Positions 10,156-24,524 of a DNA stretch of 24,524 nucleotides are shown in pieces. Source of the DNA: Halalkalibacterium halodurans. GTDB taxonomy: Bacteria; Bacillota; Bacilli; Bacillales; Bacillaceae_D. The notes below the pieces were generated by a model. That model was not told the DNA's origin. It was given only the letters and a program-made list of their open reading frames with translations, and searched no databases. Every line of letters starts with the position of its first letter. Positions within the stretch are counted from its first letter, which is position 1. The stretch is from contig NZ_SNUY01000064.1 in assembly GCF_004376175.1 (NCBI RefSeq), positions 1 through 24,524 on the forward strand, given 5' to 3'. The position numbers were made by a program, and so were the translations under genes.

Positions 10156-10160
10156 TGGAA

Positions 10161-10190
10161 AAAAGCACAGGAGGATTCTTCTGTGCTTTT
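10161..10190. terminator. bidirectional intrinsic terminator between convergent EamA-type gene and dapA
   Basis: Stem AAAAGCACAG (10161-10170) pairs perfectly with CTGTGCTTTT (10181-10190). An A-run upstream and a T-run downstream make it usable on both strands. Confidence 0.75.
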
Positions 10191-10202
10191 TCATAAGTAA
10201 AT

Positions 10203-11090
10203 TTAGCTAACAAACATATTGAACTGTGGGTTGATCGCTAGCTCTAATTGCCGCTGTTCTTCAGCCGTTAGCGGAACGAGGGGAAGGCGTACATGCCCAA
10301 CAGGAAGCCCTTTTAGTTCAAGAGCAGCTTTCACTGCAGTTGGGTTGGGTGTCATAAATAAAGTTTTCATGAGCGGTAGTAGTTTCCGATGGATCGCTGC
10401 TGCCCGCTCTACTTGTCCTGACAAAAATAATTGCACCATTTCTTGCATTTCATTTCCGATGATATGCGAAGCAACAGAGACGACTCCTGTCCCGCCGATC
10501 GATAAGAGCGGTAATGTCAATGAATCATCCCCACTGTAGACGCTAAAGTCTGCAGGAGAATGTTCAATAATTTCAGCAATCTGATCAAGATTGCCGCTTG
10601 CTTCTTTAATCGAAACAATATTTCTTAGTTCAGCAAGGCGTAGCGTCGTTTCCGCATCCAAGTTGACACCGCTTCTTCCGGGAATGTTGTAAAGCATGAT
10701 TGGTAAGGAAGTGGATTCGGAAATGGCTTTAAAGTGTTGAAATAAGCCTTCCTGAGATGGCTTGTTGTAGTAAGGGGTCACGAGCATGATACCGTCCACA
10801 CCTAAATCTTCTACTTTTTTACTCAGCTCAATCGAAGCCCTCGTATTGTTGGAGCCTGTTCCTGCGATGACGGGAACTCGGCCACCTGCGGCTTCCACTA
10901 CGGTGTGGAAAAGGGCCATTTTTTCATCTGTCGTTAACGTGGGCGATTCGCCAGTGGTTCCACCAACGACAAGGGCATCGCTCCCATTGGCAATTAATTC
11001 ATTTACAAGTTGACAGGTCGCTTCTAGGTTCACTTGGTCCTGTTCGTTGAACGGTGTGACCATCGCTGTAACAATCCGTCCGATATTCAT
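10203..11090 (-). CDS. dapA: 4-hydroxy-tetrahydrodipicolinate synthase
   Basis: Motifs present are TAMVTPF, VVGGTTGESPTL, LYNIPGRSG and the active-site Lys context VSIKEASG. The start is set at ATG 11090 (MNIGR), 9 nt after AGAGGAGG; the track start at 11099 abuts the SD. Confidence 0.9.
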   Translation of the reverse strand: MNIGRIVTAMVTPFNEQDQVNLEATCQLVNELIANGSDALVVGGTTGESPTLTTDEKMALFHTVVEAAGGRVPVIAGTGSNNTRASIELSKKVEDLGVDGIMLVTPYYNKPSQEGLFQHFKAISESTSLPIMLYNIPGRSGVNLDAETTLRLAELRNIVSIKEASGNLDQIAEIIEHSPADFSVYSGDDSLTLPLLSIGGTGVVSVASHIIGNEMQEMVQLFLSGQVERAAAIHRKLLPLMKTLFMTPNPTAVKAALELKGLPVGHVRLPLVPLTAEEQRQLELAINPQFNMFVS

Positions 11091-11198
11091 TCCGTGCATC
11101 CTCCTCTATTCATGGTTGAAATTGAAGTGCGTGATCGGTTGTCTCATTGGTGAATAGAGCTATACGACCTCATCGCAAAGAAAAAGCTATACGACATC

Positions 11199-11230
11199 AA
11201 AAAAGCAACAATGAGAGGGCTCATTGTTGC
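11199..11230 (-). terminator. terminator of the lysine-riboswitch expression platform
   Basis: The minus strand reads GCAACAATGAG-CCCT-CTCATTGTTGC followed by TTTTTT. An upstream ATGTTGC (about 11284-11290) can pair with the left arm as an antiterminator. Confidence 0.75.
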
Positions 11231-11289
11231 ATGGTATGTGTTGATTAACAACCATTCCGATGCGTGAGATAGCCCTCCATATAGCAACA

Positions 11290-11447
11290 TCCGCTATATG
11301 ACAGTTCTGTATTTATTTAATACAGAACCAGCCTTCAGAACATGAGATTCTTCCAGCTTCGGCAAATTCCCCTTTCCACAATTCTCAACGGATCTCATTC
11401 TCCTCCAATTGTGTACTCTTGGTTTTTGCACCTCTATCCTCACTTCA
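11290..11447 (-). promoter_or_regulatory. lysine riboswitch (L-box) aptamer in the dapA leader
   Basis: The minus strand reads ...GAAGTGAGGATAGAGGTGCAAAAACCAAGAGTA...TTGGAGGAG...GAAAGGGGAATTTGCCGAAGCTGG...AACTGTCAT. This is collinear with my memory of the B. subtilis lysC L-box blocks (GATAGAGGTGCGAACTTCAAGAGTA / TTGGAGA / GAAAGGGGA..GCCGAAG / CTGTCA). Confidence 0.8.
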
Positions 11448-11629
11448 ATAATAAGAAGTTGAGATATATGTGATTGTGTCTCCACCTTAACAGAAGATGA
11501 TTAAGAATGCAATGTAAAATCAATATTTTCGCTTAAGTTTATGTAAATAGTGAGGAAACACTTCTTTATTCGTGAGGGAAGATTAAATTGTTTTTCAAAT
11601 GAAGGGAATGCGATCGTTCTGTAGTTTGC

Positions 11630-11764
11630 TTAATGTTTTTGGACGATGTTGAGAAGCCTGTCTAATTCTTGACTACAGCTGACGGTAATTTCAGCAGTTA
11701 ACCCATATTTTGCAGCTAAATTAAGCATTTGCTCTCGTTTTTTTTCAATTTGTTTCACAACCAT
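11630..11764 (-). CDS. Spo0E-family aspartyl-phosphate phosphatase (44 aa)
   Basis: Not in the ORF track. My translation is MVVKQIEKKREQMLNLAAKYGLTAEITVSCSQELDRLLNIVQKH, which has the Spo0E-family SQELDxL(I/L)N signature and helix-hairpin layout. GGAG lies 10 nt upstream of the ATG. Confidence 0.75.
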   Translation of the reverse strand: MVVKQIEKKREQMLNLAAKYGLTAEITVSCSQELDRLLNIVQKH

Positions 11765-11986
11765 CAATGTTCAGCTCCATTATTCGTATTTCTTAAACAA
11801 CATTCAGATGATTTTAATCACACGACGACTATTATAGTCAATTTCTGACGATTGAAAAGAGGTTCACTAAAAAAAGTCAATATTACTCAAAAGTAGTAGA
11901 ATTTCGACAGGATTAGCGTTTCCTAAATCTTTCAGCATTGAAACGCCAGAGGTATAGGAAAACTATAATCAAAAGGAGGGGAGATA

Positions 11987-12673
11987 ATGAAACGATTAAC
12001 CGTCGTGGTGATTTCATTTGTGACGTTAGTTGCAGGCTGCGCACAGGAACCAACAACTTTCGGGCTTGCTCGTGACCAAGGACATGAGGCGCGCGGGACA
12101 GCCCATACTTGGCAAGGTCTAGAAGGACCACTTACCGATATGATGGTTCCAGAGCGTACAAGAAATGGGCTTGCGCGAAGAGACTCAAAGACGTTTGGTG
12201 AGCAACAAGAGCAAGCAGGGGCGAAACGAGGGCTAGGCTTTCGCCACCAAAGTCAACGGATATTGAAAGATCGAATGGGTACTGTGGAAGATATGCCACA
12301 AATTAGTGATCATCCACACATGAAGCAAAGGCAGCTCCAGGTAGGTGTTCAGGAAGTCCAAACACGAGAACAAGCAATTAAGCAGCGACTGCTTAACTTA
12401 GAATCGGTTCATAATGTCTACGTTCTGTCCAATGGGCATTCGCTTATCATCGGGGTAGATGCGGCAGAATCGAATCGAAAAAAGCTGCATCGAACGATCC
12501 GTGAGACGATTGACGACCTTGTCGATCTGAATCGTGTGACGATCACAACGAAAAGGGCCCACCTTCAAAGGATGAGAACATTTGAAGAAGGGTACCATCT
12601 AGGTCAGCCAATAGAAGCCGTTGAAGGGTTCTGGGGTGAGATGGTCGAGCGATTTAATCAAGATCAATCATAA
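11987..12673 (+). CDS. YhcN/YlaJ-family sporulation lipoprotein
   Basis: It has a signal peptide with the lipobox LVAGC. The C-terminal block VHNVYVLSNGHSLIIGVDAAESNRKKLHRTIRETI resembles the YlaJ/YhcN core. A strong SD (AAAGGAGGGGAG) precedes the ATG. Confidence 0.7.
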   Translation: MKRLTVVVISFVTLVAGCAQEPTTFGLARDQGHEARGTAHTWQGLEGPLTDMMVPERTRNGLARRDSKTFGEQQEQAGAKRGLGFRHQSQRILKDRMGTVEDMPQISDHPHMKQRQLQVGVQEVQTREQAIKQRLLNLESVHNVYVLSNGHSLIIGVDAAESNRKKLHRTIRETIDDLVDLNRVTITTKRAHLQRMRTFEEGYHLGQPIEAVEGFWGEMVERFNQDQS

Positions 12674-12677
12674 AAAG

Positions 12678-12712
12678 GAAAGCACGTTCTTATATAAAGA
12701 CGTGCTTTTTTA
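12678..12712 (+). terminator. intrinsic terminator after the YlaJ-like gene
   Basis: Stem AAAGCACGT (12679-12687) pairs with ACGTGCTTT (12700-12708), followed by a T-run. Confidence 0.7.
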
Positions 12713-12799
12713 TAAGGGCAACTACACTGAGTTTTTTAGAAACGTTAATATACTGGGGAGAGGTAGCCTGCATAAAGAGCGTGCAAACTACCTCTTTTT

Positions 12800-13372
12800 C
12801 TAATATAATCCTTCGTTATCCAGTACAGTCAAGTACGCCCGTTCCACCTGTTTAAGGTTGGACACAGCGTTTTCAAAATGCACCTTCGTTCTGGCGCGGT
12901 TTCCACTGGTTGGGTTTGATACAAGTTCATCGTGTAAGTTGGTTACCGTATTTAATTCAATTTCTAAGCTTTCCAAAACATTTCGCACACCTTGGAACTC
13001 AGAAGGAGTGTCTTTGACAAGCATGGATTTTGTCCAAGCATGAAGTTCTCTTAACCGCTCCCTTGCCTCTGGTTCATTCATTCGTACCGTCTGTCCCTCC
13101 CGGTAAAAAGGGGCAAGAGCTTCTAATTCATGAGCTGCTTCCATTAAATAGTATCCGAAATGGTCAGCATACTCAGTTACATAGTCCTCATGAGTATTTT
13201 GCTGTTGTTGCTGTACCTTCGTATTCGACGGTGGTGTGACCATTTTAGCTTGATCATGCTCCTGTGCGATCATATCGTTTGCTACTTGCTCTTCTGTCGC
13301 TTGTTGGCAACCGCTAAAAATGAAGCCGATCGTCGTCATTAGGAGAATGAACAGAGTGAATCGTCGTTTCAT
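12800..13372 (-). CDS. putative lipoprotein, function unknown
   Basis: It has a signal peptide with the lipobox IFSGC. The mature part is hydrophilic and looks helical, with a Gln-rich linker. No family was recognised. Confidence 0.65.
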   Translation of the reverse strand: MKRRFTLFILLMTTIGFIFSGCQQATEEQVANDMIAQEHDQAKMVTPPSNTKVQQQQQNTHEDYVTEYADHFGYYLMEAAHELEALAPFYREGQTVRMNEPEARERLRELHAWTKSMLVKDTPSEFQGVRNVLESLEIELNTVTNLHDELVSNPTSGNRARTKVHFENAVSNLKQVERAYLTVLDNEGLY

Positions 13373-13514
13373 ATGAATATAGACCCCTTTGTCTTTAAAT
13401 TCTTAACGTTAGTATAGGATGTTTCTTGCTTTGTATGCGTAACGGCTATTGATTGCTCAATTCAACTGACTGTACTAAAATGAAACAGATGACCTTAAAG
13501 GAGTGGACAAATAG

Positions 13515-14363
13515 ATGAAATTAATTGCCATAGATATGGATGGTACATTACTGAATGACGAGCGAAAAATATCAAAAGAAAATGCAGAAGCGATCAAGGC
13601 AGCACAACAAGACGGCATCCATGTGGTTGTTGCAACAGGTCGGGATTTTAAAGAGGCAAGCATGCCGTTAAAAGAAGCTGGATTAACCTGTCCCATTCTC
13701 TGTGTAAACGGAGCTGAGGAACGAAGTGCTAATGGCGAATTGATCCACGCCGTATCTTTGGCTAAAAATGAAGCGCTGACGATTTTAGATATATTAACAG
13801 CTGCGGATGTTTACTTTGAAGTGTACACAAACAGAGGGGCTTTTACTGATGATTATGAAAAAGGATTAGAGATTGTGATTGACGTTTTGCAATCGGCAGG
13901 ATCGGATGATTCATATGAGAAGATGCGTGAAATTGCAAAGCATCGATTTGAGTCTGGTGCTGTTCAGTTGACAGAGGATTATACGAAATTAATCGACTCA
14001 ACAGCTGTCTATAAATTTTTAGCGTTTTCAAGGGATGAAACAAAGCGACAAGCTGCAAAGGACGACCTTGAAAAAAAGGATGTCTTCTCCGTAAGTGCGT
14101 CTGCCTCTGATAACTTAGAGATCACACATTGGCAAGCACAAAAGGGAATTGCTCTCCGTCGGTTAGCTGAGCGCCTCGGCATTAACTCAGACAACGTGAT
14201 GGCAATTGGTGATAACTTAAATGATGTTTCTATGTTGAAGTATGCTGGTACGGCTGTCGCGATGGAAAATGGAGAAGCAGAAGTTAAACAATTAGCTGAC
14301 TTTGTCACAGCGTCAAATGAAGATAATGGTGTAGCTAAAGCGATCAACAAATGGTTGAAATAA
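13515..14363 (+). CDS. Cof-type HAD-IIB phosphatase
   Basis: HAD motif I is IAIDMDGTLL, motif II is VVATGR, and motif IV is AIGDNLNDVSM. The cap domain is typical of Cof/YidA-like sugar phosphatases. SD AAAGGAGTGG precedes the ATG. Confidence 0.85.
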   Translation: MKLIAIDMDGTLLNDERKISKENAEAIKAAQQDGIHVVVATGRDFKEASMPLKEAGLTCPILCVNGAEERSANGELIHAVSLAKNEALTILDILTAADVYFEVYTNRGAFTDDYEKGLEIVIDVLQSAGSDDSYEKMREIAKHRFESGAVQLTEDYTKLIDSTAVYKFLAFSRDETKRQAAKDDLEKKDVFSVSASASDNLEITHWQAQKGIALRRLAERLGINSDNVMAIGDNLNDVSMLKYAGTAVAMENGEAEVKQLADFVTASNEDNGVAKAINKWLK

Positions 14364-14378
14364 GTGAGAATAACGACC

Positions 14379-14411
14379 AAACCTACCTAGAAAAAGCAGG
14401 TAGGTTTTTTG
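14379..14411 (+). terminator. intrinsic terminator after the HAD gene
   Basis: AACCTACCT pairs with AGGTAGGTT across the loop AGAAAAAGC, followed by TTTTT. Confidence 0.75.
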
Positions 14412-14469
14412 CTATATAAAACGAAGTAGCAACAAAGTTCAATGTATTATAACAAATAGAAAATAACTG

Positions 14470-14498
14470 TTGACTATTATAGAACAGATGCGTATACT
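14470..14498 (+). promoter_or_regulatory. sigma-A-type promoter of a small transcription unit
   Basis: TTGACT (14470-14475), a 17-nt spacer, then TATACT (14493-14498). Confidence 0.5.
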
Positions 14499-14555
14499 GT
14501 AACTAAGAAAAAGAAACTTACTGAAAATTTAAAAAGAATGGGGAGTGAGAGTAGA

Positions 14556-14660
14556 ATGTTGAGAATCTCTGCTGATCAACAGGAGAAAAAGCCGGAAACA
14601 ACAACGGAAGAAGAGCCGACGATCCTTGATATGATTAACGACTATTATGGTCGTACGTAA
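14556..14660 (+). CDS. hypothetical 34-aa acidic peptide
   Basis: MLRISADQQEKKPETTTEEEPTILDMINDYYGRT, with GGGGAG upstream. It is bracketed by its own promoter-like element and terminator. There is no signal peptide and no family was recognised. Confidence 0.4.
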   Translation: MLRISADQQEKKPETTTEEEPTILDMINDYYGRT

Positions 14661-14672
14661 TGATTAAATGAC

Positions 14673-14706
14673 AGAGTTTAGCCATTGGGTTAAGCTCTTT
14701 TTTTTG
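14673..14706 (+). terminator. intrinsic terminator of the small transcription unit
   Basis: AGAGTTTAGC (14673-14682) pairs with GTTAAGCTCT (14689-14698), including 2 G-U pairs, followed by a T8 run. Confidence 0.7.
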
Positions 14707-14740
14707 TTCTGTAATATGACAGTAGGAGCATGAGAAACCC

Positions 14741-14769
14741 TTGACACAGAAGAAAAGGAAGTCTAGGAT
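14741..14769 (+). promoter_or_regulatory. candidate bioB promoter
   Basis: TTGACA (14741-14746), a 17-nt spacer, then TAGGAT (14764-14769). The operator-like repeat lies immediately downstream. Confidence 0.4.
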
Positions 14770-14771
14770 TA

Positions 14772-14806
14772 AATTGTTAACTTAAATTTATGATCAGTTT
14801 ACAATT
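14772..14806. promoter_or_regulatory. BirA operator-like inverted repeat (bioO)
   Basis: AATTGTTAAC (14772-14781), 15 nt, then GTTTACAATT (14797-14806). This is 9/10 symmetric and matches the Firmicutes BirA site pattern TGTtAAC-N-GTTaACA. It sits between the promoter and the bioB SD. Confidence 0.65.
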
Positions 14807-14829
14807 GATATTGATTGGAGGAGTGAGCA

Positions 14830-15831
14830 ATGAATTGGATTCAGCTTGCCCAAGAAGTGATTGAGGGGAAACGTATATCAGAAAATGAAGCGTTAGCCAT
14901 TCTTAACAGTCCTGACGACGAACTTTTGCTTTTGTTGCAAGGGGCGTTCACGATCCGGCAAACATACTACGGAAAGAAAGTAAAATTAAATATGATTATG
15001 AACGCAAAATCAGGATTTTGTCCAGAGAATTGCGGTTATTGTTCCCAGTCGTCCATATCGAAGGCACCGATTGACGCGTACCCGATGGTGAATAAAGAAA
15101 CCATTTTGGAAGGCGCAAAACGGGCTCATGAATTAAATGTGGGGACGTACTGTATTGTGGCCAGTGGGCGTGGACCTACGAATCGAGACATTGATCATGT
15201 TACGGAAGCGGTTCGCGAAATTAAAGATACGTATGGATTAAAGATATGTGCTTGTCTCGGTATTTTAAAACCGGAGCAGGCTGAGCAGTTAAAAGCGGCA
15301 GGGGTTGACCGATATAATCACAATGTTAATACATCGGCTCGCCACCATGATCAGATCACGACCTCACACACGTATGAGGATCGGGTAAACACGGTCGAAG
15401 TTGTAAAGCATAGCGGGATTTCACCGTGCTCAGGTGTGATCGTTGGTATGAAAGAAACAAAGGAAGATGTTGTGGACATGGCCTTTCAATTGCGGGAACT
15501 CGATGCCGATTCCATTCCGGTGAATTTCTTACATGCAATAGACGGGACACCGCTTCAAGGCGTCCATGAACTGACTCCTATTTATTGCTTGAAAGTATTA
15601 GCCTTATTCCGCTATGTATGTCCAACGAAGGAAATACGGATCTCAGGGGGAAGGGAAGTCAATTTAAAGAGCCTTCAACCACTTGGCCTTTATGCAGCTA
15701 ACTCCATTTTCATCGGTGATTATTTGACGACAGCAGGTCAGGAGGAAACGGCTGACCATCAAATCCTGAAAGATTTAGGATTCGAAGTGGAATCTGTGGA
15801 AGAAATGAAAGCAAGCCTGCAAGGCCAGTAA
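14830..15831 (+). CDS. bioB: biotin synthase
   Basis: Radical-SAM motif CPENCGYCSQS. Length and sequence are typical of BioB (YCIVASGRG, NHNVNTS). SD GGAGGAG is 7 nt upstream. Confidence 0.92.
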   Translation: MNWIQLAQEVIEGKRISENEALAILNSPDDELLLLLQGAFTIRQTYYGKKVKLNMIMNAKSGFCPENCGYCSQSSISKAPIDAYPMVNKETILEGAKRAHELNVGTYCIVASGRGPTNRDIDHVTEAVREIKDTYGLKICACLGILKPEQAEQLKAAGVDRYNHNVNTSARHHDQITTSHTYEDRVNTVEVVKHSGISPCSGVIVGMKETKEDVVDMAFQLRELDADSIPVNFLHAIDGTPLQGVHELTPIYCLKVLALFRYVCPTKEIRISGGREVNLKSLQPLGLYAANSIFIGDYLTTAGQEETADHQILKDLGFEVESVEEMKASLQGQ

Positions 15832-15843
15832 ACAAAATGGAAA

Positions 15844-15875
15844 GGGAGCGGCTTAGGTGCTGCTCTCTTTTCATT
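15844..15875 (+). terminator. intrinsic terminator after bioB
   Basis: GGGAGCGGC pairs with GCTGCTCTC (2 G-U pairs) across the loop TTAGGT, followed by TTTTCATTTT. Confidence 0.55.
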
Positions 15876-16047
15876 TTGAATCATGAGAAGAAGACAGACA
15901 TGATACACGCGGTCGTTGAGACATTTGCCTTGTCGAGCAATTCCTTCTTCGTAAATGCTCTAATCGCCGACGATTGCTTGTTTTTTTCGTGCAAATCGTC
16001 TGTAAAGAGAGCTACAATAGAGAAAAGGTTTACGAGGGGAGAGGGTT

Positions 16048-16339
16048 ATGCGATATTTTTCAACAGACAGCCCGGAAGTCAAAACAATTGTTGCCCAAGA
16101 CTCTAGACTTTTCCAGTTTATCGAAATAGCCGGTGAAGTGCAGTTGCCGACAAAGCCAAATCCTTTTCAATCGCTTGTATCTTCAATTGTGGAGCAGCAA
16201 CTGTCAATCAAAGCAGCGTCGGCGATATACGGTAGGGTAGAGCAATTAGTCGGTGGGGCGTTGGAAAAGCCTGAACAGCTGTATCGAGTATCAGATGAAG
16301 CGTTACGTCAGGCTGGCGTGTCAAAAAGAAAGATCGAAT
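16048..16339 (+). pseudogene. 5' part of an AlkA-like HhH-GPD DNA-3-methyladenine glycosylase gene, interrupted by an IS
   Basis: MRYFSTDSPEVK...FQSLVSSIVEQQLSIKAASAIYGRV...ALRQAGVSKRKIE. The reading frame then runs into the IS terminal repeat at 16340. Confidence 0.8.
16331..16339. repeat. target-site duplication (left copy), AGATCGAAT
   Basis: The identical 9-mer directly abuts both IS termini (16331-16339 and 17912-17920). Confidence 0.85.
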
Positions 16340-17911
16340 CACTAGCGTTGCACAAAAAAGTGAAGACAAAGTCAAGGGTACAGAAATGGAATATTATTGA
16401 TAATTATTCCATTTTATAACTTTACGAAATATTCAGTTTTATTTTTTTCTTGGTAATCAAGTCAAAAGGATAAGGGGGGTCTGTTTGAAGGTAGTCCTTA
16501 TCCAATTTTTTACAAATTAGTAGATAGGGTCATAACTTAGGTCGTTTAAATGTTGGGTATCACCATCTTCAAATTGTGCTAAGGTTTCGTTGAAAATCCG
16601 GTCATGATCAAGTCGCCTTCGACCCTTTGATGATCGCTTGGGCTTTTTAAATAGCTCCTTTAGAAAAACAGAGAAGCTTCTCCACCAATATTCTTTTATA
16701 AACTCAAGCATCTCAAGGAGAGTTCCTTGATAACGCACTTTCTTCTTCATTAATAAAGTTAAACAGAAAGTAATCATGGCGATATAGACTTGGTTGTAAA
16801 CGGCATTGGCGCTCTTTCCATAACATTTTTTCAGAACCATATGCTGCTTCATCCATTTGAAGAACAACTCGATTTGCCAGCGGCTTCGATAAAGATCACT
16901 GATTTCCTCTGCGCTCATCTTTGCATCATTTATGATAATCGAGATCTTGTTTCCTTGACTGTCCAGCGTTTCAATCAATCGTAGAGGGTATTTCATTTTT
17001 CCTAGCTTGACCACCGCCTCACGAAGAATATCGGAAGATGGGTCCACAGGCAGTTCTTCAATAACCTTGATGACCGTGTTATCTTTTATTCGAGTACAAA
17101 ACCGAACGTTATTTTTACAGTAATCGTCAAACTTATCGAAATCGAAATATCCCCGATCAAATACGTGAAGGGCATCCTTTTCGATGACCATCAAGGCATC
17201 CAGTTGTGTGGAATCTGCCCGCCTGGCAGGGGTGATGATGATCTTATCCGGGGAAATCTCCCCTTCATGAATAACGACACGGGTATGTATTTTCACTCCC
17301 GCTTTTGTATTTCGGAAATGAGCCCATCGATACTGGCTAAGACAAAAAGAGATGGTAGTAGAATCAATGAGATGGATTTTGCCTAATAAAGCATTTCCCT
17401 TTTCCTTCCCGAATTCCCGGTGGATCTGTTGGACTAAATGATGAAGGATGGATTCAAAAATCTCTGGTGGCAAATCAGAAAGTTTACGGGATAATTGGGA
17501 TTTACTGATGCTTTTTAATCCAAGTTCTTTTTGTAATTTTTTCTTATGCCGCACTTTAAAACTAATTTCCTTTAGACTTGATAACTGTTTCAATTGAGCA
17601 TAAATAAAGAGTTTGATAAAGGTGAGGCTATCTAGTTTTTTAACATATTTATCCACTTGCATTTGATCAATGATTTTAGAAATGACTTTCATGTCTGTCG
17701 GTTGAATGTATTCCTTAAAAACCGTTTTTGTGTTATTCTTGTCCATAGGTTTACTCCTTATAATTAGGATATGGACAGGACTTCGTACCTTCTGTCATCT
17801 AATTATAAGGATTTTTTTATGAAGTTGAAGACTAGTATTTACCATAAATTCAATAAAATTGAATTTAATTACACCTTGACAAATCTTTTTTTATTTAATG
17901 CAACGCTAGTG
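16340..17911 (-). mobile_element. complete IS4-family insertion sequence (1572 bp)
   Basis: Perfect 13-bp terminal inverted repeats: CACTAGCGTTGCA (16340-16352) and TGCAACGCTAGTG (17899-17911). A subterminal GTCAAGG is shared at both ends. It carries a single transposase ORF and is flanked by a 9-bp direct repeat. The interior is more AT-rich than its surroundings. Confidence 0.85.
16517..17746 (-). CDS. IS4-family DDE transposase
   Basis: 409 aa. DDE context is IHLIDSTTISF and LHVFDRGYFDF. The Y-(2)-R-(3)-E-(6)-K signature is YRSRWQIELFFKWMK. Confidence 0.9.
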   Translation of the reverse strand: MDKNNTKTVFKEYIQPTDMKVISKIIDQMQVDKYVKKLDSLTFIKLFIYAQLKQLSSLKEISFKVRHKKKLQKELGLKSISKSQLSRKLSDLPPEIFESILHHLVQQIHREFGKEKGNALLGKIHLIDSTTISFCLSQYRWAHFRNTKAGVKIHTRVVIHEGEISPDKIIITPARRADSTQLDALMVIEKDALHVFDRGYFDFDKFDDYCKNNVRFCTRIKDNTVIKVIEELPVDPSSDILREAVVKLGKMKYPLRLIETLDSQGNKISIIINDAKMSAEEISDLYRSRWQIELFFKWMKQHMVLKKCYGKSANAVYNQVYIAMITFCLTLLMKKKVRYQGTLLEMLEFIKEYWWRSFSVFLKELFKKPKRSSKGRRRLDHDRIFNETLAQFEDGDTQHLNDLSYDPIY

Positions 17912-17920
17912 AGATCGAAT
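17912..17920. repeat. target-site duplication (right copy), AGATCGAAT
   Basis: See the left copy at 16331-16339. Confidence 0.85.
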
Positions 17921-18294
17921 ACATCCGTCACGTTTGTGAACATGTTGAATCTGGGCGACTTGATTTTACGGAGTTGGAGGGAGCTGAGGCTACCACAGTC
18001 ATCGAAAAGCTGACGGCTATTAAAGGAATTGGCCAATGGACAGCCGAAATGTTCATGATGTTTTCCCTCGGTCGACTGGATGTGCTATCTGTAGGTGATG
18101 TGGGCTTACAACGAGGGGCAAAATGGTTGTACGGCAACGGTGAAGGTGACGGAAAAAAGTTGCTCATTTATCATGGGAAAGCGTGGGCTCCTTATGAAAC
18201 CGTCGCTTGTCTATATTTATGGAAAGCTGCTGGGACATTTGCTGAAGAATACCGCTCACTGGAAGAGCTTTTACACCATGGGAATCAATGCTAG
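17921..18294 (+). pseudogene. 3' part of the AlkA-like HhH-GPD glycosylase gene
   Basis: Removing the IS and one duplication copy joins ...KRKIE to YIRHVCEHVESGRLDF...IKGIGQWTAEMFMMFSLGRLDVLSVGDVGLQRG in frame. The helix-hairpin-helix/GPD motif and catalytic Asp context are present. The restored ORF is 666 nt (221 aa). Confidence 0.8.
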
Positions 18295-18304
18295 CCTGAA
18301 TCGA

Positions 18305-18333
18305 GAATAGCTTTTGTTCCCCTCCTTATACTA
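18305..18333 (+). promoter_or_regulatory. forespore (sigma-G/F-like) promoter candidate for the SASP gene
   Basis: GAATA (18305-18309), a 17-nt spacer, then TATACTA (18327-18333). The remembered consensus is GHATR ... CATxxTA. Confidence 0.45.
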
Positions 18334-18362
18334 TAGGTAAATGAAAAAGAGAGGTGAAAACA

Positions 18363-18545
18363 ATGGCTAGAAGCAGAAACAAACTCCTCGTTCCTGGGGT
18401 AGAACAAGCGCTTAACGAAATGAAATATGAAATCGCGCAAGAATTTGGTGTTCGTTTAGGATCTGATACAACGTCACGAGCAAACGGCTCTGTCGGTGGA
18501 GAAATCACAAAACGTCTCGTTCAGCAATCCGAAAGAGAATTTTAA
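18363..18545 (+). CDS. alpha/beta-type small acid-soluble spore protein
   Basis: [60 protein letters not shown] carries the two conserved SASP blocks ([10 protein letters not shown] and [12 protein letters not shown]). The start is set at ATG 18363, 8 nt after GAGAGG. Confidence 0.9.
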
Positions 18546-18558
18546 TGATATGAAAGGA

Positions 18559-18587
18559 AGCGCATGCGACGCTGCATGTGCTTTTTT
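18559..18587 (+). terminator. intrinsic terminator after the SASP gene
   Basis: AAGCGCATGC pairs with GCATGTGCTT (one G-U pair) across the loop GACGCT, followed by a T-run. Confidence 0.7.
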
Positions 18588-18827
18588 AAGTTTACCTATA
18601 AAGGGAAACATGTCATCCAGTGTTTCAGTCATCTTTTTTAGTGACGCATGATGCAGGAAGATTAAACAAGTTAATAGAGTCTCGGAATAAATAACAATTT
18701 TCCGGGTGAAATGAACCAAAATTACTGGAAATTGGATTGGAATGGCCTGCACACTCATTATTTTCATTGTATTTTCAAAAATGTGCATGACAAAGAAACC
18801 TATTGCCATTATTTTTTTAAAAATTGA

Positions 18828-20330
18828 CTAGGCGGCTTTAGGAAAGATGATTTCTTCAATATTTAACTGCTCTTTCTGACTGCTGTACCAAGCATCGATG
18901 TGCTGACACATCATTATGGCGTATAGGCGAATGTACCACATTTTTGTTGACCGGTGGCGTCCAGATTCCAAGTGATAATCTATTTTTTCTCTTTTATTAG
19001 AACGTTCAACAGAGGTTCTTCGTTTGTATATAAGTTTCCACTTTTCAGAGGACCTTGGTGTTTTGGTAAATAATCGTAGATTATCCTCTCTGAATGTATG
19101 GAATGTCCGACCATATTTTGCTTTTGAACACGGTGATGAGCATGTATTTTTGGTACCGCAAGCAAGTGGACAACGCCATTTTTGCCGATTTTGAGATTTG
19201 TCAAACCCGTTGGGCTTCATCTCCTTCCCAATCGGACAGATTGGAACACCTGTTGGAGATATTTGAATATCACTTTCTGTACTAAAGTTCTTCTTTGTTC
19301 GAACATTTAAATCGATGAAGGGTTCCACATTTTGATGTTCAAGTAGCTCATAAATGGCCTCAGCATCGTGCGCTGCATCAAGAAGAATTTTATCAATCGT
19401 GCCCAAGGTGTACCGTTGCGAAAATTCAATTGAACTAACCACTAGGCTGACTGAATCATGCCGGGAAGCAGGATGCAGCCGTGGATATAGCGGTAAGTCG
19501 TATTGGCTATCGCTAGTGGATATCATGTAGAGATGATATCCGTTGAAGTACTTTTCCTTAGAACTATCCCAGCCTGAGTCGATGTCGGGTTGTGAATACT
19601 GGCGTGGGTGAGTACAGTTCGTTAGTCCTTGGGCACTACAATTACAGGTTGATTTACTTCTCGGGTACCTAGCTGTTTCAATTGGTGTCCCATCTCCAAC
19701 TACACCTAGAGCTTCGGGATCCCCAAGAAGACCAAGTTTCGTAGAAACCGCTAAAAATTGGGATTGAAAAAACTCAAATAATCGGTCTCCTGGCAGTTGT
19801 TTTTGTTTGGAACCATAACGCATTGCCCGATCAACGAGTTTACGAACAATTCCGGGATTCTTAGGTTCAGCTTTTTCACCCTTTTTAGGCTTCTTTTTCT
19901 TTTTTGACTTTTTCTTTTTAGGTTTGACCTTCGGCATAACATTCGGGCTTTCGAAGGCCCATAAACGTTTGAAAAAGTCTTCAAATGTTCCAACACCTGG
20001 TGTGTCACCGGGTTCAAAACCGCTAAGAATTGCATACAACGGAACGCGACGAAGTTGATCAACCCAATGAGTAATACCTTTTGTAGGTTGAACAAATAAT
20101 GAAAGCAGATAAGAACGCATCATAGAAGCAGGGTCACGAGGCTTTGGTCCCTTTTTGGAATAGGAATCACCAAGCCATGTAGTTACCGAAGAGAGATCAG
20201 TTATCCAAAGCTTTTTAATTACTGGCCAATCCTTATTAACAAGGGTAAGAATGCCGCCAGAATAATGGGCATTTAACTGATTTAGAACGAAGTTTTGATA
20301 AGTTTCGTGGGCAATAAACGTTGGTTTCAT
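18828..20330 (-). CDS. DDE transposase, IS1182-like (DUF772-type N-domain, Cys-rich insert)
   Basis: 500 aa. The N-terminal block is RDPASMMRSYLLSLF...VDQLRRVPLYAILSGF. There is a poly-Lys linker (KPKKKKSKKKKKPKK) and a Cys-rich segment (CPIG...WRCPLACGTKNTCSSPCS). The Y-(2)-R-(3)-E-(6)-K signature is YKRRTSVERSNKREK. Confidence 0.85.
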   Translation of the reverse strand: MKPTFIAHETYQNFVLNQLNAHYSGGILTLVNKDWPVIKKLWITDLSSVTTWLGDSYSKKGPKPRDPASMMRSYLLSLFVQPTKGITHWVDQLRRVPLYAILSGFEPGDTPGVGTFEDFFKRLWAFESPNVMPKVKPKKKKSKKKKKPKKGEKAEPKNPGIVRKLVDRAMRYGSKQKQLPGDRLFEFFQSQFLAVSTKLGLLGDPEALGVVGDGTPIETARYPRSKSTCNCSAQGLTNCTHPRQYSQPDIDSGWDSSKEKYFNGYHLYMISTSDSQYDLPLYPRLHPASRHDSVSLVVSSIEFSQRYTLGTIDKILLDAAHDAEAIYELLEHQNVEPFIDLNVRTKKNFSTESDIQISPTGVPICPIGKEMKPNGFDKSQNRQKWRCPLACGTKNTCSSPCSKAKYGRTFHTFREDNLRLFTKTPRSSEKWKLIYKRRTSVERSNKREKIDYHLESGRHRSTKMWYIRLYAIMMCQHIDAWYSSQKEQLNIEEIIFPKAA

Positions 20331-20472
20331 TTGGGCACCTCAATCACAAGTAGTACGGGAAAATAATCCCTTCACCGGCGAGTATTGTGGTGTTTTTGAC
20401 AAGTCAAGTGTTTCTTGTCGAATTCGAGAAAAAATATTGATAATTAATTTCCAGATTTAAAAAATGAACATT

Positions 20473-20500
20473 AAAAAATCCCACCTAAAATAGGAGGGAT
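20473..20500 (-). terminator. minus-strand terminator-like hairpin upstream of the transposase gene
   Basis: The minus strand reads ATCCCTCCT-ATTTT-AGGTGGGAT followed by TTTTTT (9 bp with one mismatch). It could block read-through into the transposase, or it could be a relic host terminator. Confidence 0.45.
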
Positions 20501-20638
20501 GAAATAAATTGGTTTGAGGAAAATCCTTGAACCACAAAGCTCGGCGAATGCCGAGAGTCTATGTTAAAGGTAGGAGGAAGGAAAAGCGGTACGTCGTTTA
20601 TCATTTGGTAAGTAATTCTTATAACGAGGAGGGATATA

Positions 20639-20788
20639 ATGGAACGAGTTAGTGATCATTATGCAACGATGGCGCTCACAGAGCCACAGTTGAACCAAAT
20701 CCGGCAATTAGAGGAACAGCTTCGTAAAGAAACGAATAAAGATGTTGTGCTCATCGCCTATGAAGAAAGTGATCACAATCCGACATAA
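20639..20788 (+). CDS. hypothetical 49-aa protein
   Basis: Not in the ORF track. MERVSDHYATMALTEPQLNQIRQLEEQLRKETNKDVVLIAYEESDHNPT. A very good SD (GAGGAGGG) is 7 nt upstream, and the stop runs straight into a hairpin terminator. Confidence 0.55.
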   Translation: MERVSDHYATMALTEPQLNQIRQLEEQLRKETNKDVVLIAYEESDHNPT

Positions 20789-20826
20789 AAAAAGGTGCCT
20801 GCTCGCATTAGCGATAAGGCACCTTT
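20787..20826 (-). terminator. intrinsic terminator of the AbgT-family gene (hairpin shared with the convergent 49-aa ORF)
   Basis: AAAGGTGCCT (20791-20800) pairs with AGGCACCTTT (20817-20826). The long U-tract is on the minus-strand side. Confidence 0.75.
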
Positions 20827-20833
20827 CAATGAT

Positions 20834-22378
20834 TTAAGGGCGTGGTGGATAATGGATTGGTGAGTCAGGTCCAAGATCAATGCCGAAGAACATCCAGACC
20901 ATTAACATAATCGTCCAAACGATCGTAAACACAATTGAATAAGGAAGCATCACCGAAATTAACGTACCGATGCCCATTTTTTTATCATACTTTTGCGCAA
21001 AGGCGATAATGATCGCAAAATAGGTCATGAGTGGTGTAATAATATTCGTTGTAGAGTCGGCAATCCGATATGCCATTTGTGTTAATTCTGGCGAATAGCC
21101 GAGCTGCATCATAATTGGAACAAAAACAGGTGCCATGACGGCCCATTTGGCTGAAGCACTTCCGATAAACAGGTTAATAAACCCTGCAATCAAAATAAAC
21201 GCCAAAATGAGCGGAATCCCTGTCAATTGGATGTTATCTAAAAAGGTAGCACCGTATACACCGAGAATGAGGCCCATATTTGTTTCGTTAAAATACGCAA
21301 CAAACTGCCCTGCAGTAAAGGCGAGGACGACGAACATTCCCATCGATGCCATCGTGTCAGACATTTGACTGGCAACGTCCTTGTCATTGCGAATCGATTT
21401 CGTGATTGCCCCATAAACAAGACCAGGGACAAGAAACAGGATCAAGATGACCGGGACGAGCGAACTCATAAACGGCGATTGAATAATCGGGCTGTCTCCT
21501 TCCCCGCGCAGCGGTCCCCATTCAGGAATAACAAGAAGAAGCATAAGCGCGAGCGTGATGATGAACGATATGCTCGCCCACAAAAGTCCTTTTTTCTCTT
21601 CTGGCTTTAAATAATCAATGCTCTGTTTTTCGAGCGATCCTTTAAAGGCTCCGAGCCGAGGCTCTACAATTTTATCGGTTACAAACCAACCAGCAAGTGT
21701 AAGGACGAAGACAGAAGCAATGATAAAGTACCAGTTCATCGCATAGTTGATGGTTTCCGCATAAGCAGGATCAATCGTAGCCGCTGCTTGTTGTGTCAGG
21801 GCGCCAAGCATTGGATCGGTTGCCGACAAGAAGATGTTCGCACTAAACCCTGCCGATACCCCAGCAAAGGCGGCGGCCAAACCTGCGAGCGGGTGGCGTC
21901 CGAGAGCAATAAACAGCATCGCTCCGAGCGGTGGAAGGACCACATAACCAGCATCAGAGGCCACGCTTGACATAATTCCGGCAAACACAAGAGTGACTGT
22001 AATTAGACTTTTCGGTACTGCTGTGACAAGTCCGCGCAAGCTAGCACTAATGAGACCGCTTCGTTCGGCAATCCCAATACCGAGCATCGTTGCTAGAACA
22101 ACACCAAGTGGAGGAAAATTAATAAAATTGCTTACCATACTGGTGAAAATGTAAGCGATCCCTTCACTTGATAATAAGTTCATGACTTCGACTGTTTCCC
22201 CAGGATTGGCAGGATCGTCAACCGAAATGTTAAACGCAGATAAAATACCTGAAGCTACAATAACTAATAACGCTAAGATAGCAAATAATGTAATTGGATG
22301 AGGTAGGCGGTTTCCTGTTACTTCAATAAAGTTCAGGAACTTTGTGAAAATCCCGCCTTTTTTCTTTGGCCCTTCCAT
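20834..22378 (-). CDS. AbgT-family transporter (p-aminobenzoyl-glutamate / short-peptide type)
   Basis: 514 aa. The N-terminus FLNFIEVTGNRLPHPITLFAILALLVIV and FPPLGVVLATMLGIGIAERSGL are characteristic of AbgT/MtrF. SD AAAGGAG is 8 nt upstream. Confidence 0.88.
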   Translation of the reverse strand: MEGPKKKGGIFTKFLNFIEVTGNRLPHPITLFAILALLVIVASGILSAFNISVDDPANPGETVEVMNLLSSEGIAYIFTSMVSNFINFPPLGVVLATMLGIGIAERSGLISASLRGLVTAVPKSLITVTLVFAGIMSSVASDAGYVVLPPLGAMLFIALGRHPLAGLAAAFAGVSAGFSANIFLSATDPMLGALTQQAAATIDPAYAETINYAMNWYFIIASVFVLTLAGWFVTDKIVEPRLGAFKGSLEKQSIDYLKPEEKKGLLWASISFIITLALMLLLVIPEWGPLRGEGDSPIIQSPFMSSLVPVILILFLVPGLVYGAITKSIRNDKDVASQMSDTMASMGMFVVLAFTAGQFVAYFNETNMGLILGVYGATFLDNIQLTGIPLILAFILIAGFINLFIGSASAKWAVMAPVFVPIMMQLGYSPELTQMAYRIADSTTNIITPLMTYFAIIIAFAQKYDKKMGIGTLISVMLPYSIVFTIVWTIMLMVWMFFGIDLGPDSPIHYPPRP

Positions 22379-22664
22379 AGTGAATCTCCTTTCTCGTGTT
22401 AATTCTGTTAGACAAGCAAAAGATTTCTGACAATTCTAGCTGTGCAAGCGCATTCCATTCTATAACAGATTTGTCCTTAGGAAAACCGTTTCCTTGGAAA
22501 ATCAAACTTTAGTCCTAAAAGTTTTATTAGAATAATAATGTCTGTAATAAAACTAATCTCTAAACATTGAAGTTAGCTCATAAAAAAGAGAATTGAATTT
22601 AATTCCAAACCAACAACTAAATTCTAATATGTAGTAATTTATTTCTAATTTAGATTTTAATAGG

Positions 22665-22694
22665 TTGTTATATCTTTTTTTTAATTGGTATAAT
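22665..22694 (+). promoter_or_regulatory. candidate extended -10 promoter for the bacteriocin-like operon
   Basis: TTGTTA (22665-22670), an 18-nt spacer, then TGgTATAAT (-10 hexamer at 22689-22694). It lies in very AT-rich DNA, so the chance of a false match is real. Confidence 0.4.
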
Positions 22695-22883
22695 ATAACA
22701 TGATATGAAATTAATGATCTATTGTTTTATTATAGCATCTGTTAGTCTTTTTACCTATATTGCGGTGCTTGTACCCAACTCCTAATCATTTTAAGGAGGT
22801 GATTATTATAAGAAAAAAATTAGTTTCATCGTTTAATTAAGTATTTAGTTGGTTCAAATTATTTTAAGGAGGACTAATAAAGA

Positions 22884-23288
22884 ATGAAGTTGAATTTAAG
22901 AAAAAAATTGATTGCTGGGGTAACTTTTTTAGGGATTTTTGGCGCAATGTCTGGTGTGGCACTAGCTGAAGATGATGCAGTAGGGGGCTGGGTTGAAGGA
23001 GAAGGCTATTGGACAAGCAAAGACAACTATGAAATAAGAAAGAGTAGCTCACCTACTTCTCATCAAGGATGGAAGCAGGTAAGAGAAAGAAGTGGAGGAA
23101 AGCAGTACCGAGCTGTAGGAGTGACCCAATGGAGCAAACAGCATTATACAAGAGCACAAATGGTAGGCCGGGTATCAGGATATGTACATGCTGATAGTTA
23201 TCGAGTTTGGGGTACTGATTCCACTGAGGCTCGTTCACCATGGATATCAAAAAACTATCAAGCTCGTACATTCTATGGATCAAAATAA
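22884..23288 (+). CDS. Sec-secreted 106-aa mature protein, lactococcin-972-like bacteriocin candidate
   Basis: Signal peptide MKLNLRKKLIAGVTFLGIFGAMSGVALA|EDD. The mature part has no Cys, 6 Trp and many Tyr/Lys/Arg. The blocks GGWxEGxG, NY, H, WSK and a C-terminal FYG loosely parallel Lcn972 (GTWQHGYG ... SNYHH ... VWAKA ... FYYNFW). A strong SD (AAGGAGG) precedes the ATG. The CDS call is firm; the family call is tentative. Confidence 0.6.
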   Translation: MKLNLRKKLIAGVTFLGIFGAMSGVALAEDDAVGGWVEGEGYWTSKDNYEIRKSSSPTSHQGWKQVRERSGGKQYRAVGVTQWSKQHYTRAQMVGRVSGYVHADSYRVWGTDSTEARSPWISKNYQARTFYGSK

Positions 23289-23307
23289 ATGAATACTCTA
23301 AAACTAC

Positions 23308-23334
23308 AATGAAGCTGTCATTGGCAGCTTCATT
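23308..23334 (+). other. intercistronic stem-loop (possible partial terminator / mRNA-stabilising hairpin)
   Basis: A perfect 10-bp stem, AATGAAGCTG (23308-23317) with CAGCTTCATT (23325-23334), and a 7-nt loop. The weak T content afterwards (CCCATTTG) suggests a leaky terminator at best. Confidence 0.5.
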
Positions 23335-23361
23335 CCCATTTGTCAAAAGGGAGTTGACGAT

Positions 23362-24411
23362 ATGAATCAGGCGGCCATGACCAAATTAAGAAAAAATGGA
23401 ACTCTTACGATCGGTGCGTTGTTTGGATTGTTCAGTCTGTTAATGATGGCGCTGAGTGCCTTTCAAATAAAACAAGATGAGTTAAACATGGTCACCCGAG
23501 GATTATATGACCCAAGAGCAGTTGCCTTTACGTTTGAAGACCTTGGTCAAGCGATCGATTGGAAAGAGATAGATACTGATAGACCATTTACTGTTTTCAC
23601 GAATCCAGATGAACCAATTCGTGGGTTTTATTATCAGCGTGAAACGTATATTCCGCCAATGATATCTGGTCGTTTTTTTAAAGAGAACGATTTTTATCGG
23701 GGTCAAAAATATATAGTTGTTGGTCAAGCGATCGACCAGCAGACTATTGACAATTGGCAGCAACAAGGTTATAGGCTACTTGGGATTATGGGTGCCTCCT
23801 ACGCATCTGCCATTGATCATTTAATTCTAGTCAATCTTGATGCTATGGAACAGGGGAAACCGGCTGCTTATTACAATGAAGACGGGGAACCAGTGGCCTC
23901 TGAAATATATGTAATTAACAGTCATGACAAGCTAATTGTAGGGGACGAGTTACACTTTAATCATCATACAGTATTTAGGGTGAACACAATCGCGCGAGAA
24001 GATGTCGGAGTTTTTCGTTTTTTAGAGTTTAGCCTATTCCAGATTATTATTTCGGTTCTTTCGCACGTGCTTATTTTCAGTTTAACACTGTTATTTAGTT
24101 TTTATTGGCTCGAGAAACAAAGAACAGAATGTATAATTCTCTGGCATTTAGGAATTCAGTTAAGAAAGCCGTACAGTCGGTATGCTCTTACGTTATTTGG
24201 TTTGCTATCAATTTCGTATGGTTTAATAGGGATTCTTACATTGAGCTGGATGCTGATATTCAATCATAATCTACAAACAATCATCTTCCACACAAACAAT
24301 ATGTTGATTGGGTATCTCCTTATGCTCCTAGCGATCAGTGCTTCGATTAGCTTAGGCAGTTGGAGAGTGAAAAAGACTATTTATAGAAGGGTAGTGTCAA
24401 AAGTTCTATGA
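23362..24411 (+). CDS. FtsX/DUF1430-like 4-TM membrane protein (putative bacteriocin immunity / ABC permease component)
   Basis: 349 aa. TM1 is about residues 15-36, followed by an extracytoplasmic domain of about 170 aa, then three C-terminal TM segments. This is the classic FtsX/MacB-type topology. ISGRFFKENDF-type and C-terminal segments are reminiscent of bacteriocin-associated integral membrane proteins. SD AGGGAG is 8 nt upstream. Confidence 0.7.
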   Translation: MNQAAMTKLRKNGTLTIGALFGLFSLLMMALSAFQIKQDELNMVTRGLYDPRAVAFTFEDLGQAIDWKEIDTDRPFTVFTNPDEPIRGFYYQRETYIPPMISGRFFKENDFYRGQKYIVVGQAIDQQTIDNWQQQGYRLLGIMGASYASAIDHLILVNLDAMEQGKPAAYYNEDGEPVASEIYVINSHDKLIVGDELHFNHHTVFRVNTIAREDVGVFRFLEFSLFQIIISVLSHVLIFSLTLLFSFYWLEKQRTECIILWHLGIQLRKPYSRYALTLFGLLSISYGLIGILTLSWMLIFNHNLQTIIFHTNNMLIGYLLMLLAISASISLGSWRVKKTIYRRVVSKVL

Positions 24412-24524
24412 AAAACTAGCACGGTTCATACTACCTACCATTTATTAGGTGGAAATGCCACGCTATCGCTCTTGACAAACACACCAATGGTTTATTCAGA
24501 GGTCAATCAAGGGCGAAGGGAACA

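Follow-up and report, generated by a model that had tools for sequence, protein, structure and literature searches.

The stretch of DNA analyzed here (the window: 24,524 nucleotides (nt) of contig NZ_SNUY01000064.1 of Halalkalibacterium halodurans, positions 1 to 24,524 of the forward strand) carries near its right end a gene for a small secreted protein followed by a gene for an integral membrane protein. A preliminary description of this sequence had listed the two open reading frames (ORFs), of 134 and 349 amino acids (aa), and had read them as a candidate bacteriocin of the lactococcin 972 (Lcn972) type and its immunity protein. Both ORFs are present, at 22884-23288 (+) and 23362-24411 (+), and their placement in an accessory cassette, as a secreted protein with an FtsX/MacB-type membrane protein, was upheld by our analysis. 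The two ORFs make up the first half of a cassette of four genes, which encodes the secreted small protein, a first permease (permease 1), a second permease (permease 2), and an ATP-binding cassette (ABC) ATPase. What is new is that an operon of Lcn972 style here has a secreted protein of another family at its core and a permease split in two, and the cassette is probably a sister or cousin of the Lcn972 system, not a member of it.

Gene content of the cassette

In the other H. halodurans assemblies that we retrieved, the secreted-protein gene and the permease 1 gene are followed by genes for a 422-aa permease 2, the start of which overlaps the stop of permease 1 (ATGA), and a 223-aa ABC ATPase; an AbgT transporter gene flanks the cassette on one side and a P450 gene on the other. 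The ATPase gene lies outside the window (12318-12989 of the retrieved H. halodurans locus L003). The preliminary description had correctly noted that the final 113 nt of the window show no start of an ATPase gene, and had supposed that the gene was either further downstream or missing. The first supposition was right for the other strains, and the apparent absence here is the effect of an insertion sequence (IS) at the window end. Positions 9890-24389 are 99.4-99.9% identical to strain CP040441, two insertions aside, and collinearity ends at 24389. The sequence from 24390 on occurs in five metagenome contigs with five different left flanks, the shared part beginning with GGTAGTGTCAAAAG, and in one of these contigs (L047) it adjoins a gene for a 477-aa DDE_Tnp_IS240/IS6-like transposase with an N-terminal Cys-rich region. 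Because the five left flanks differ and a transposase gene adjoins in one contig, we assign 24390-24524 (no strand assigned) to the end of a multi-copy IS of the IS6/IS240-type DDE transposase family. The window tail had no match among plasmids and retrieved loci.

The IS lies at the junction of permease 1 and permease 2 and splits the window genes from those for permease 2 and the ATPase. The last seven permease 1 codons, from 24390, are IS-derived, and the protein ends in …RRVVSKVL in place of …RREGVKQ. Over 98% of its length, the 349-aa permease 1 product shows 100% identity to an H. halodurans protein, and no exact match to it is on record, since the IS altered its C-terminus. The cassette has thereby been cut after permease 1, and the pump is probably impaired or differently expressed in this strain.

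The window ORF pair together with the two further genes was found in at least 14 independent genomic contexts. The cassette occurs in H. halodurans and metagenomic relatives, Desmospora, Salipaludibacillus, Salsuginibacillus, Texcoconibacillus, Pseudogracilibacillus, Melghirimyces, Paenibacillus, a Bacillota metagenome-assembled genome, Bacillus velezensis, Streptococcus azizii, and Curtobacterium. The order is fixed in every context examined: small protein(s), permease 1 (approximately 300-357 aa), permease 2 (approximately 413-430 aa), and ATPase (approximately 210-236 aa). The B. velezensis cassette is inserted among core genes, with an FtsW/RodA-family gene on one side and a nitroreductase gene on the other, and that of S. 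azizii adjoins IS630-type transposase fragments. Such a patchy phyletic distribution suggests horizontal transfer. Two small genes are present in Melghirimyces. Desmospora profundinema (L018, 2995-10251) combines three small genes, paralogous to one another, with two pairs of permease 1 and permease 2 and one ATPase gene; two of its small genes precede a full pump, and the third has its own permease pair and no ATPase. The Desmospora arrangement suggests that the permeases determine specificity and have the ATPase in common.

The preliminary description had given the 349-aa product an FtsX/MacB topology, that is, one transmembrane (TM) segment, a large extracytoplasmic domain, and three further TM segments, and hydropathy bore this out. 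Hydrophobic stretches of permease 1 (23362..24411, +) lie at residues 13-37, 220-250, 274-300, and 307-334, which give TM1, an ectodomain of approximately 180 aa, and TM2-4, the type VII layout. In Pfam, MacB_PCD (PF12704) matched residues 17-162 with 13.3 bits (cut-off 27) and FtsX (PF02687) matched residues 228-338 with 12.2 bits (cut-off 25.5); the two matches are collinear and nearly full-length, and both are below the gathering score. Permease 2 reached 26.8 bits on MacB_PCD against the cut-off of 27, and one permease relative (P0007) has a precomputed PF12704 match. The AlphaFold2 model of permease 1, made from a 6-sequence alignment, was poor, with a predicted local distance difference test (pLDDT) score of 54.6 and an ectodomain below 50. 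Its helices span residues 13-46, 223-252, 268-300, and 304-348, and the top Foldseek matches of this poor model were FtsX, LolE/LolC, and HrtB, every one with E >= 0.37.

We compared the permeases with type VII ABC transporters, namely LolCDE, which has two different half-permeases, and FtsEX-EnvC/PcsB/CwlO, MacAB, and HrtBA, which have extracytoplasmic partners. Both cassette permeases have the order TM1, large ectodomain, and TM2-4 of these transporters with weak, ordered MacB_PCD/FtsX matches, although all their Pfam scores stay below the gathering thresholds. As in LolC/LolE, two paralogous permeases have one common ATPase. Unlike type VII systems, the cassette contains no lipoprotein, adaptor, or hydrolase partner, and a small secreted protein is always encoded upstream.

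For the Lcn972 system, the comparison covered the system of Lactococcus lactis plasmid pBL1 and its relatives streptococcin B, mediterrocin, and Lmo2776. Canonical clusters consist of the bacteriocin, one DUF1430/TIGR01654 protein of 650-740 aa, and an ATPase, whereas the cassette has two half-permeases of approximately 350 and 420 aa, which are paralogues (hhalign probability 85%, E = 6e-6). The DUF1430 type proposed earlier for the membrane partner was not recovered, as neither permease matched PF07242 (DUF1430) or TIGR01654; the pBL1 membrane protein scores 706 bits on the latter. DUF1430 proteins carry two weak FtsX modules each, and hhalign of each permease against these modules gave weak similarity (E = 4.6e-4 and 3e-3). 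Most simply, the pair of half-permeases would jointly do the job of the fused DUF1430 protein. The preliminary description had also spoken of a half-size permease; the size is real, but it is accounted for by the second, paralogous 422-aa permease gene in intact strains. As a separate observation, ORFs of 252 aa (hypothetical) and 416 aa (DUF1430) replace the usual single DUF1430 gene on a plasmid of Streptococcus salivarius (L028).

The cassette ATPase is nearest to the Lcn972-type named subfamily. TIGR03608 ('L_ocin_972_ABC') was the best NCBIfam match of the ATPase in seven of eight cassettes, with 181-238 bits, and the H. halodurans ATPase matched it best with 229.9 bits, below the cut-off of 254.85. 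ATPases of genuine Lcn972 clusters score 253-290 bits on this model, or 269-290 bits other than that of pBL1. The position of the cassette ATPase under the cut-off counts as a difference from the Lcn972 system. Scores of 203-214 bits on the MacB, LolD, DarD, and FtsE models place it in the MacB/LolD/FtsE clade, and its identity to the pBL1 ATPase is 39%. The prototype pBL1 ATPase, at 253.4 bits, is itself just below the curated cut-off.

A perfect 10-bp hairpin between the two window genes, reported in the preliminary description, was confirmed by sequence and folding. The stem-loop AATGAAGCTG / CAGCTTCATT (23308..23334, +) has a 7-nt loop and no U-run after the stem, and the predicted folding energy of the intergenic RNA is -22.2 kcal/mol (z = -3.7 vs shuffles). 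The spacer that separates the small gene from permease 1 was compared in 12 cases from other genomes, and 11 of these have a strong hairpin of unrelated sequence, often with a U-rich tail; the exceptional spacer is just 19 nt long. Because the position is conserved, we propose that the hairpin acts as a leaky terminator or transcript stabilizer that would set the ratio of small-gene to pump mRNA. A hairpin in this place is the usual layout for over-expressing a structural gene relative to a pump.

The secreted protein and lactococcin 972

The secreted-protein precursor (22884-23288, +) starts with a 28-aa Sec signal peptide, MKLNLRKKLIAGVTFLGIFGAMSGVALA (22884..22967, +), with a predicted cut after A-L-A and EDD thereafter. 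Cleavage at ALA, residue 28, as described previously, agrees with the standard n/h/c composition, and N-termini of the same Sec type recur throughout the family alignment. The mature part (22968..23288, +) was expected to be 106 aa long, Cys-free, basic, and rich in Trp and Tyr, and its computed composition conforms to this: 12.17 kDa, isoelectric point 9.56, no Cys, 6 Trp, and 8 Tyr.

A single-sequence search with the secreted protein gave two relatives only. Further relatives were gathered from genes adjoining permease 1 homologues and then by profile search, which found 85 family matches among 5.8 billion proteins; an exhaustive HMMER search of 1.84 billion proteins gave 133 clusters at 50% identity. 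Members occur in Bacillales, Clostridia, Streptococcus, and Actinobacteria (Curtobacterium, Jonesia), and the motifs GGW.E..GY[WF], H.G, RA.G.T.W...HYTRA, DSGR.WG..T.A.SP, and ART[FY]YG are invariant in the family alignment from Bacillales through Actinobacteria. The protein of the window had no match at E<=1 in Pfam and NCBIfam, and the Pfam scans gave no DUF1093/YxeA match for it or its relatives. The secreted protein founds an unnamed family. PADLOC and PHROG scans returned nothing for the three cassette-specific components, and we rejected a known phage-defence system or a phage origin on these grounds. Two variants among the relatives were seen. A Cys pair, absent from the H. halodurans protein, is present in two of the three Desmospora small proteins. 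In Salipaludibacillus sp. LMS25 (L019, 5534-6000) the small gene ends after HYTRAQL (91 aa) and the pump is intact; a frameshift is likely, as by eye the DNA behind it appears to carry the rest of the domain in another frame, and the gene would then be either a pseudogene or the result of an error in sequencing.

The AlphaFold2 model of the mature protein, based on a 77-sequence alignment, had a pLDDT score of 92.2 and a predicted template modeling (pTM) score of 0.83, and is all-beta with approximately eight strands. Foldseek of this model against the PDB found nothing at E<=1e-3, and the search of predicted viral structures (BFVD) gave no significant match; the family profile had no match at E<=10 among PDB sequences. 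The Foldseek matches of highest probability (0.91-0.94; TM-score approximately 0.37-0.41; E 0.04-0.06) were the lipoproteins Cj0090 (PDB 4gio) and DUF1425/YcfL (PDB 3o0l). In the model, the secreted protein resembles these in having a compact beta-sandwich-like domain, but TM-scores below 0.5 and identities of 8-14% provide no evidence of homology or common function. A confident model with no PDB match suggests a new fold.

The preliminary description had found that the motif order of the secreted protein loosely follows that of Lcn972, which binds lipid II and blocks septum formation (literature cited in PMC11796350 and PMC12345188). We therefore weighed the view that the protein is a genuine, highly divergent, and extended Lcn972 member, with the same beta-sandwich core, lipid II binding, and block of septation. 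A Sec signal peptide, a small Cys-free mature protein, and GGxWxxGxG at the mature N-terminus are Lcn972-type features that it has; the leader and this motif align and speak for membership, whereas the remainder of the mature sequence does not align. The mature length is 106 aa against 66-89 aa in the Lcn972 family, a difference to be read beside the fact that known members can be 18% identical and 89 aa long (mediterrocin, PMC12345188). Our comparison set was six genuine Lcn972-family precursors taken from plasmids. These positive controls matched PF09683 at 1e-15 to 1e-18, whereas the protein of the window and its 77 relatives (0/77) missed this model. With TIGR01653, three of the 77 relatives gave weak matches (best E = 9.8e-6), which favors membership, as does the name 'Lactococcin 972 family bacteriocin' that several relatives bear in UniRef; NCBI calls these hypothetical, and in a set of ten relatives, five with UniRef Lcn972-type names and five others, none matched TIGR01653.

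The sequence comparisons suggest an origin for these matches and names. A hidden Markov model (HMM) built from the six Lcn972 precursors aligned with the family solely along the signal peptide and the start of the mature part, GGxWxxGxG. Because the local HMM alignments cover the leader and the GGxW motif alone, we read the TIGR01653 matches as probably derived from the leader and this motif, and the sequences suggest that the UniRef labels likewise stem from the leader and the N-terminal motif. In hhalign, the 77-sequence family and the six precursors gave a probability of 80% over exactly the segment of leader and GGW motif, and removal of the leader lowered it to 0.1% (E = 0.64, with an Lcn972 profile of only six sequences). 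A phmmer search with mature Lcn972 against all family members yielded nothing significant. Structures 2LGN, the Lcn972 beta-sandwich, and 9HKJ were both missed by the family profile at E<=10 in the PDB and were absent from the 50 best Foldseek matches, a method that is weak on very small NMR (nuclear magnetic resonance) beta structures. Membership can still draw on the TIGR03608 affinity of the ATPase and on the similar operon logic, but the membrane partner is not of the DUF1430/TIGR01654 type, and together with the profile results this makes a divergent Lcn972 protein improbable in our judgement. The Lcn972 likeness proposed for the secreted protein was accordingly not sustained by profile searches, hhalign, or Foldseek, and by sequence the protein is not detectably a member of that family, with which it appears to share the leader and the GGxWxxGxG motif only. 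Mediterrocin was rejected as a member of the family described here, being a genuine Lcn972 member with a DUF1430 partner.

Possible roles of the cassette

On balance we lean toward the reading that the cassette encodes an unmodified, cationic beta-protein that is exported by Sec and acts against competitors at their envelope, together with a heterodimeric MacB/FtsX-type ABC immunity pump. The bacteriocin and immunity reading of the preliminary description is reasonable because the downstream ATPase matches TIGR03608 best, although the Lcn972 membership that was part of it fails. As in the Lcn972 system, a predicted Sec-dependent, unmodified, small beta-rich protein is encoded first, and then come genes for membrane components that have FtsX-like modules and for a small ATPase of the MacB/LolD/FtsE clade. 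Tandem small genes, patchy distribution across phyla, insertion among core genes, a GC content below that of the flanks, an attenuator-like hairpin, a cationic Trp/Tyr-rich protein, and an N-terminal GGxWxxGxG motif as in Lcn972-family proteins are typical traits of bacteriocin loci. In Lcn972 producers, the membrane protein and the ATPase are presumed, unproven, to serve immunity or transport (PMC11796350, PMC12345188).

The pathway that we envisage would begin at a promoter in the AT-rich upstream region, from which a strongly translated small gene would be expressed. The 134-aa precursor is predicted to be exported by Sec and cut after ALA28 to release a 12-kDa, basic, Cys-free, all-beta protein. 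If the stem-loop behind the small gene works as its conserved position suggests, only part of the transcripts would reach the pump genes. The paralogous half-permeases, whose homology was demonstrated above, would assemble into a heterodimer with the MacB/LolD/FtsE-clade ATPase. By analogy, the secreted protein would hit the cell envelope of competitors, and the pump would keep it off the membrane or target of the producer.

Several points weigh against this bacteriocin reading. For every family member, toxicity, target, and immunity are argued by analogy, and genuine Lcn972 loci themselves have a membrane protein and an ATPase with unproven roles (PMC11796350). The PF09683 scan of the 77 relatives, hhalign after leader removal, the family profile against 2LGN and 9HKJ, and Foldseek gave no statistical link of sequence or fold from the mature protein to Lcn972, and a literature search found the family motifs in no paper. 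Across phyla, positions occupied by His, Asp, Ser, Arg, Tyr, and Trp are very strongly conserved, which would suit an enzyme or a dedicated pump partner too. The cassette sits at a single locus in every H. halodurans assembly shown and is not strain-variable like many bacteriocin loci. In the strain of the window, the small gene is intact while the IS parts permease 2 and the ATPase from it, and an intact toxin gene beside an IS-split pump is awkward if the pump is essential for self-protection.

Some of these points fit a different role. FtsEX controls PcsB, CwlO, or EnvC, and on this model the small protein may be non-toxic and serve a mechanotransmission ABC system of type VII (MacB/FtsX-like) as its extracytoplasmic partner or effector, a view that we find unlikely. 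ATP hydrolysis would then move the permease ectodomains, and these movements would activate the small protein, release it, or position it for a task at the envelope. The small gene is always found together with both permeases; the Desmospora paralogues, one of which has its own permease pair, point to a specific match of protein and permease; and the extreme residue conservation across phyla is what an enzyme or binding module would show. Fixation of the cassette in all H. halodurans assemblies shown, and the tolerance of the window's strain for an IS that separates half of the pump from the small gene, agree with such a role as well. The ATPase, however, is nearest to the Lcn972-associated subfamily and not to FtsE, the patchy phyletic spread (suggestive of horizontal transfer) and low GC content are at odds with it, tandem small genes and a terminator-like hairpin are typical of bacteriocin operons, and the small protein shows no likeness to known hydrolase or regulator folds. 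In its full form, and with the same low likelihood, this alternative would make the small protein a non-diffusible protein with a fold unmatched in the PDB and BFVD, forming with the heterodimeric ABC machine a new mechanotransmission pair that has spread horizontally among Gram-positive bacteria; Lcn972-type bacteriocin systems may have evolved from such a pair, or the reverse.

MacB/FtsX-type pumps with large ectodomains commonly confer peptide resistance in Firmicutes, as BceAB and YknXYZ do, and the ABC system could by that token be a resistance or detoxification module against exogenous antimicrobial peptides, with the small protein as an accessory that is YxeA-like in role. In genuine Lcn972 clusters of Staphylococcus aureus and Macrococcus plasmids (L030, L032), a YxeA-family gene stands between the DUF1430 and ATPase genes, which lends this idea some plausibility. 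We nevertheless regard it as very unlikely: no two-component system or other regulator was present in the gene lists beside the cassette, the family lacks a DUF1093/YxeA match, and a small gene that comes first, has the strongest ribosome-binding site (RBS), and is followed by an attenuator-like hairpin is laid out as a structural gene and not as an accessory.

Returning to the bacteriocin reading, the cassette lends itself well to experimental bacteriocin discovery. Should its secreted protein prove antimicrobial, Lcn972 would be joined by a second family of Sec-dependent, unmodified beta-sheet bacteriocins, structurally distinct from it and present in bacteria of industrial and agricultural importance such as the Bacillus velezensis/amyloliquefaciens group, streptococci, and Curtobacterium. 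The Pfam and NCBIfam bacteriocin models miss this family, and mining tools that rely on those models probably miss it too. The possible new fold is worth solving, and the split two-permease pump offers a genetically tractable route to the roles of the Lcn972-type membrane protein and ATPase (unverified, PMC11796350). The IS-interrupted copy is a natural experiment on the need for the pump when the small gene is intact.

Upstream region and other insertions

The conspicuous AT-richness noted in the preliminary description from approximately 22500 is real but uneven. Region 22500-24524 has 36.7% GC against 42.8% in the whole window, and the drop is mostly due to the 505-bp intergenic region 22379-22883 (26.5% GC), an AT-rich intergenic and regulatory region (+, defined by computed GC) that separates the cassette from the divergent AbgT transporter gene. 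The cassette itself is only modestly AT-rich: the secreted-protein gene has 42.2% GC with 0.29 at third codon positions (GC3), the permease 1 gene 38.8% (GC3 0.37), and the cassette genes overall 38-42% (GC3 0.29-0.40), compared with 45-48% (GC3 approximately 0.43-0.48) in neighboring core genes.

An Rfam scan of 22300-24524 returned zero families at E<=1. The best consensus match to a promoter in the upstream region is a sigma-70-like candidate, TTGTTA-18-TATAAT, with TG before the -10 box (extended -10) at 22665..22694 (+); this candidate is a 10/12 consensus match alone, and the number of such sites was not above the shuffle expectation. The RBS of the secreted-protein gene, AAGGAGG (22866..22872, +), was read from the sequence 11 nt before the ATG. 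A 26-codon ORF at 22705-22785, starting approximately 10 nt past the best promoter-like -10 box and preceded by no obvious RBS, would encode a very hydrophobic peptide (MKLMIYCFIIASVSLFTYIAVLVPNS).

At 22788-22821, approximately 75 nt upstream of the true start, there is a second copy of the RBS block (ATTTTAAGGAGG), and the sequence behind it, TAAGAAAAAAATT, encodes …RKKL…. These elements may be the decayed 5' end of a former tandem small gene, as found intact in Desmospora and Melghirimyces; alternatively, they could have arisen by chance in AT-rich DNA. A search for a relic second toxin gene upstream yielded no more than this duplicated RBS and RKKL fragment, and we did not retain such a gene.

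Relative to CP040441, the window contains two more IS insertions, at 16340-17911 and 18675-20562, with DDE_Tnp_1 transposase genes at 16517-17746 (-) and 18828-20330 (-). The insertion at 16340-17911 interrupts a gene for an HhH-GPD DNA glycosylase, the two parts of which lie at 16048-16419 and 17974-18294. Judging from overlaps of the blastn alignments, the target duplications of these two upstream insertions would be 9 bp and 5 bp long.

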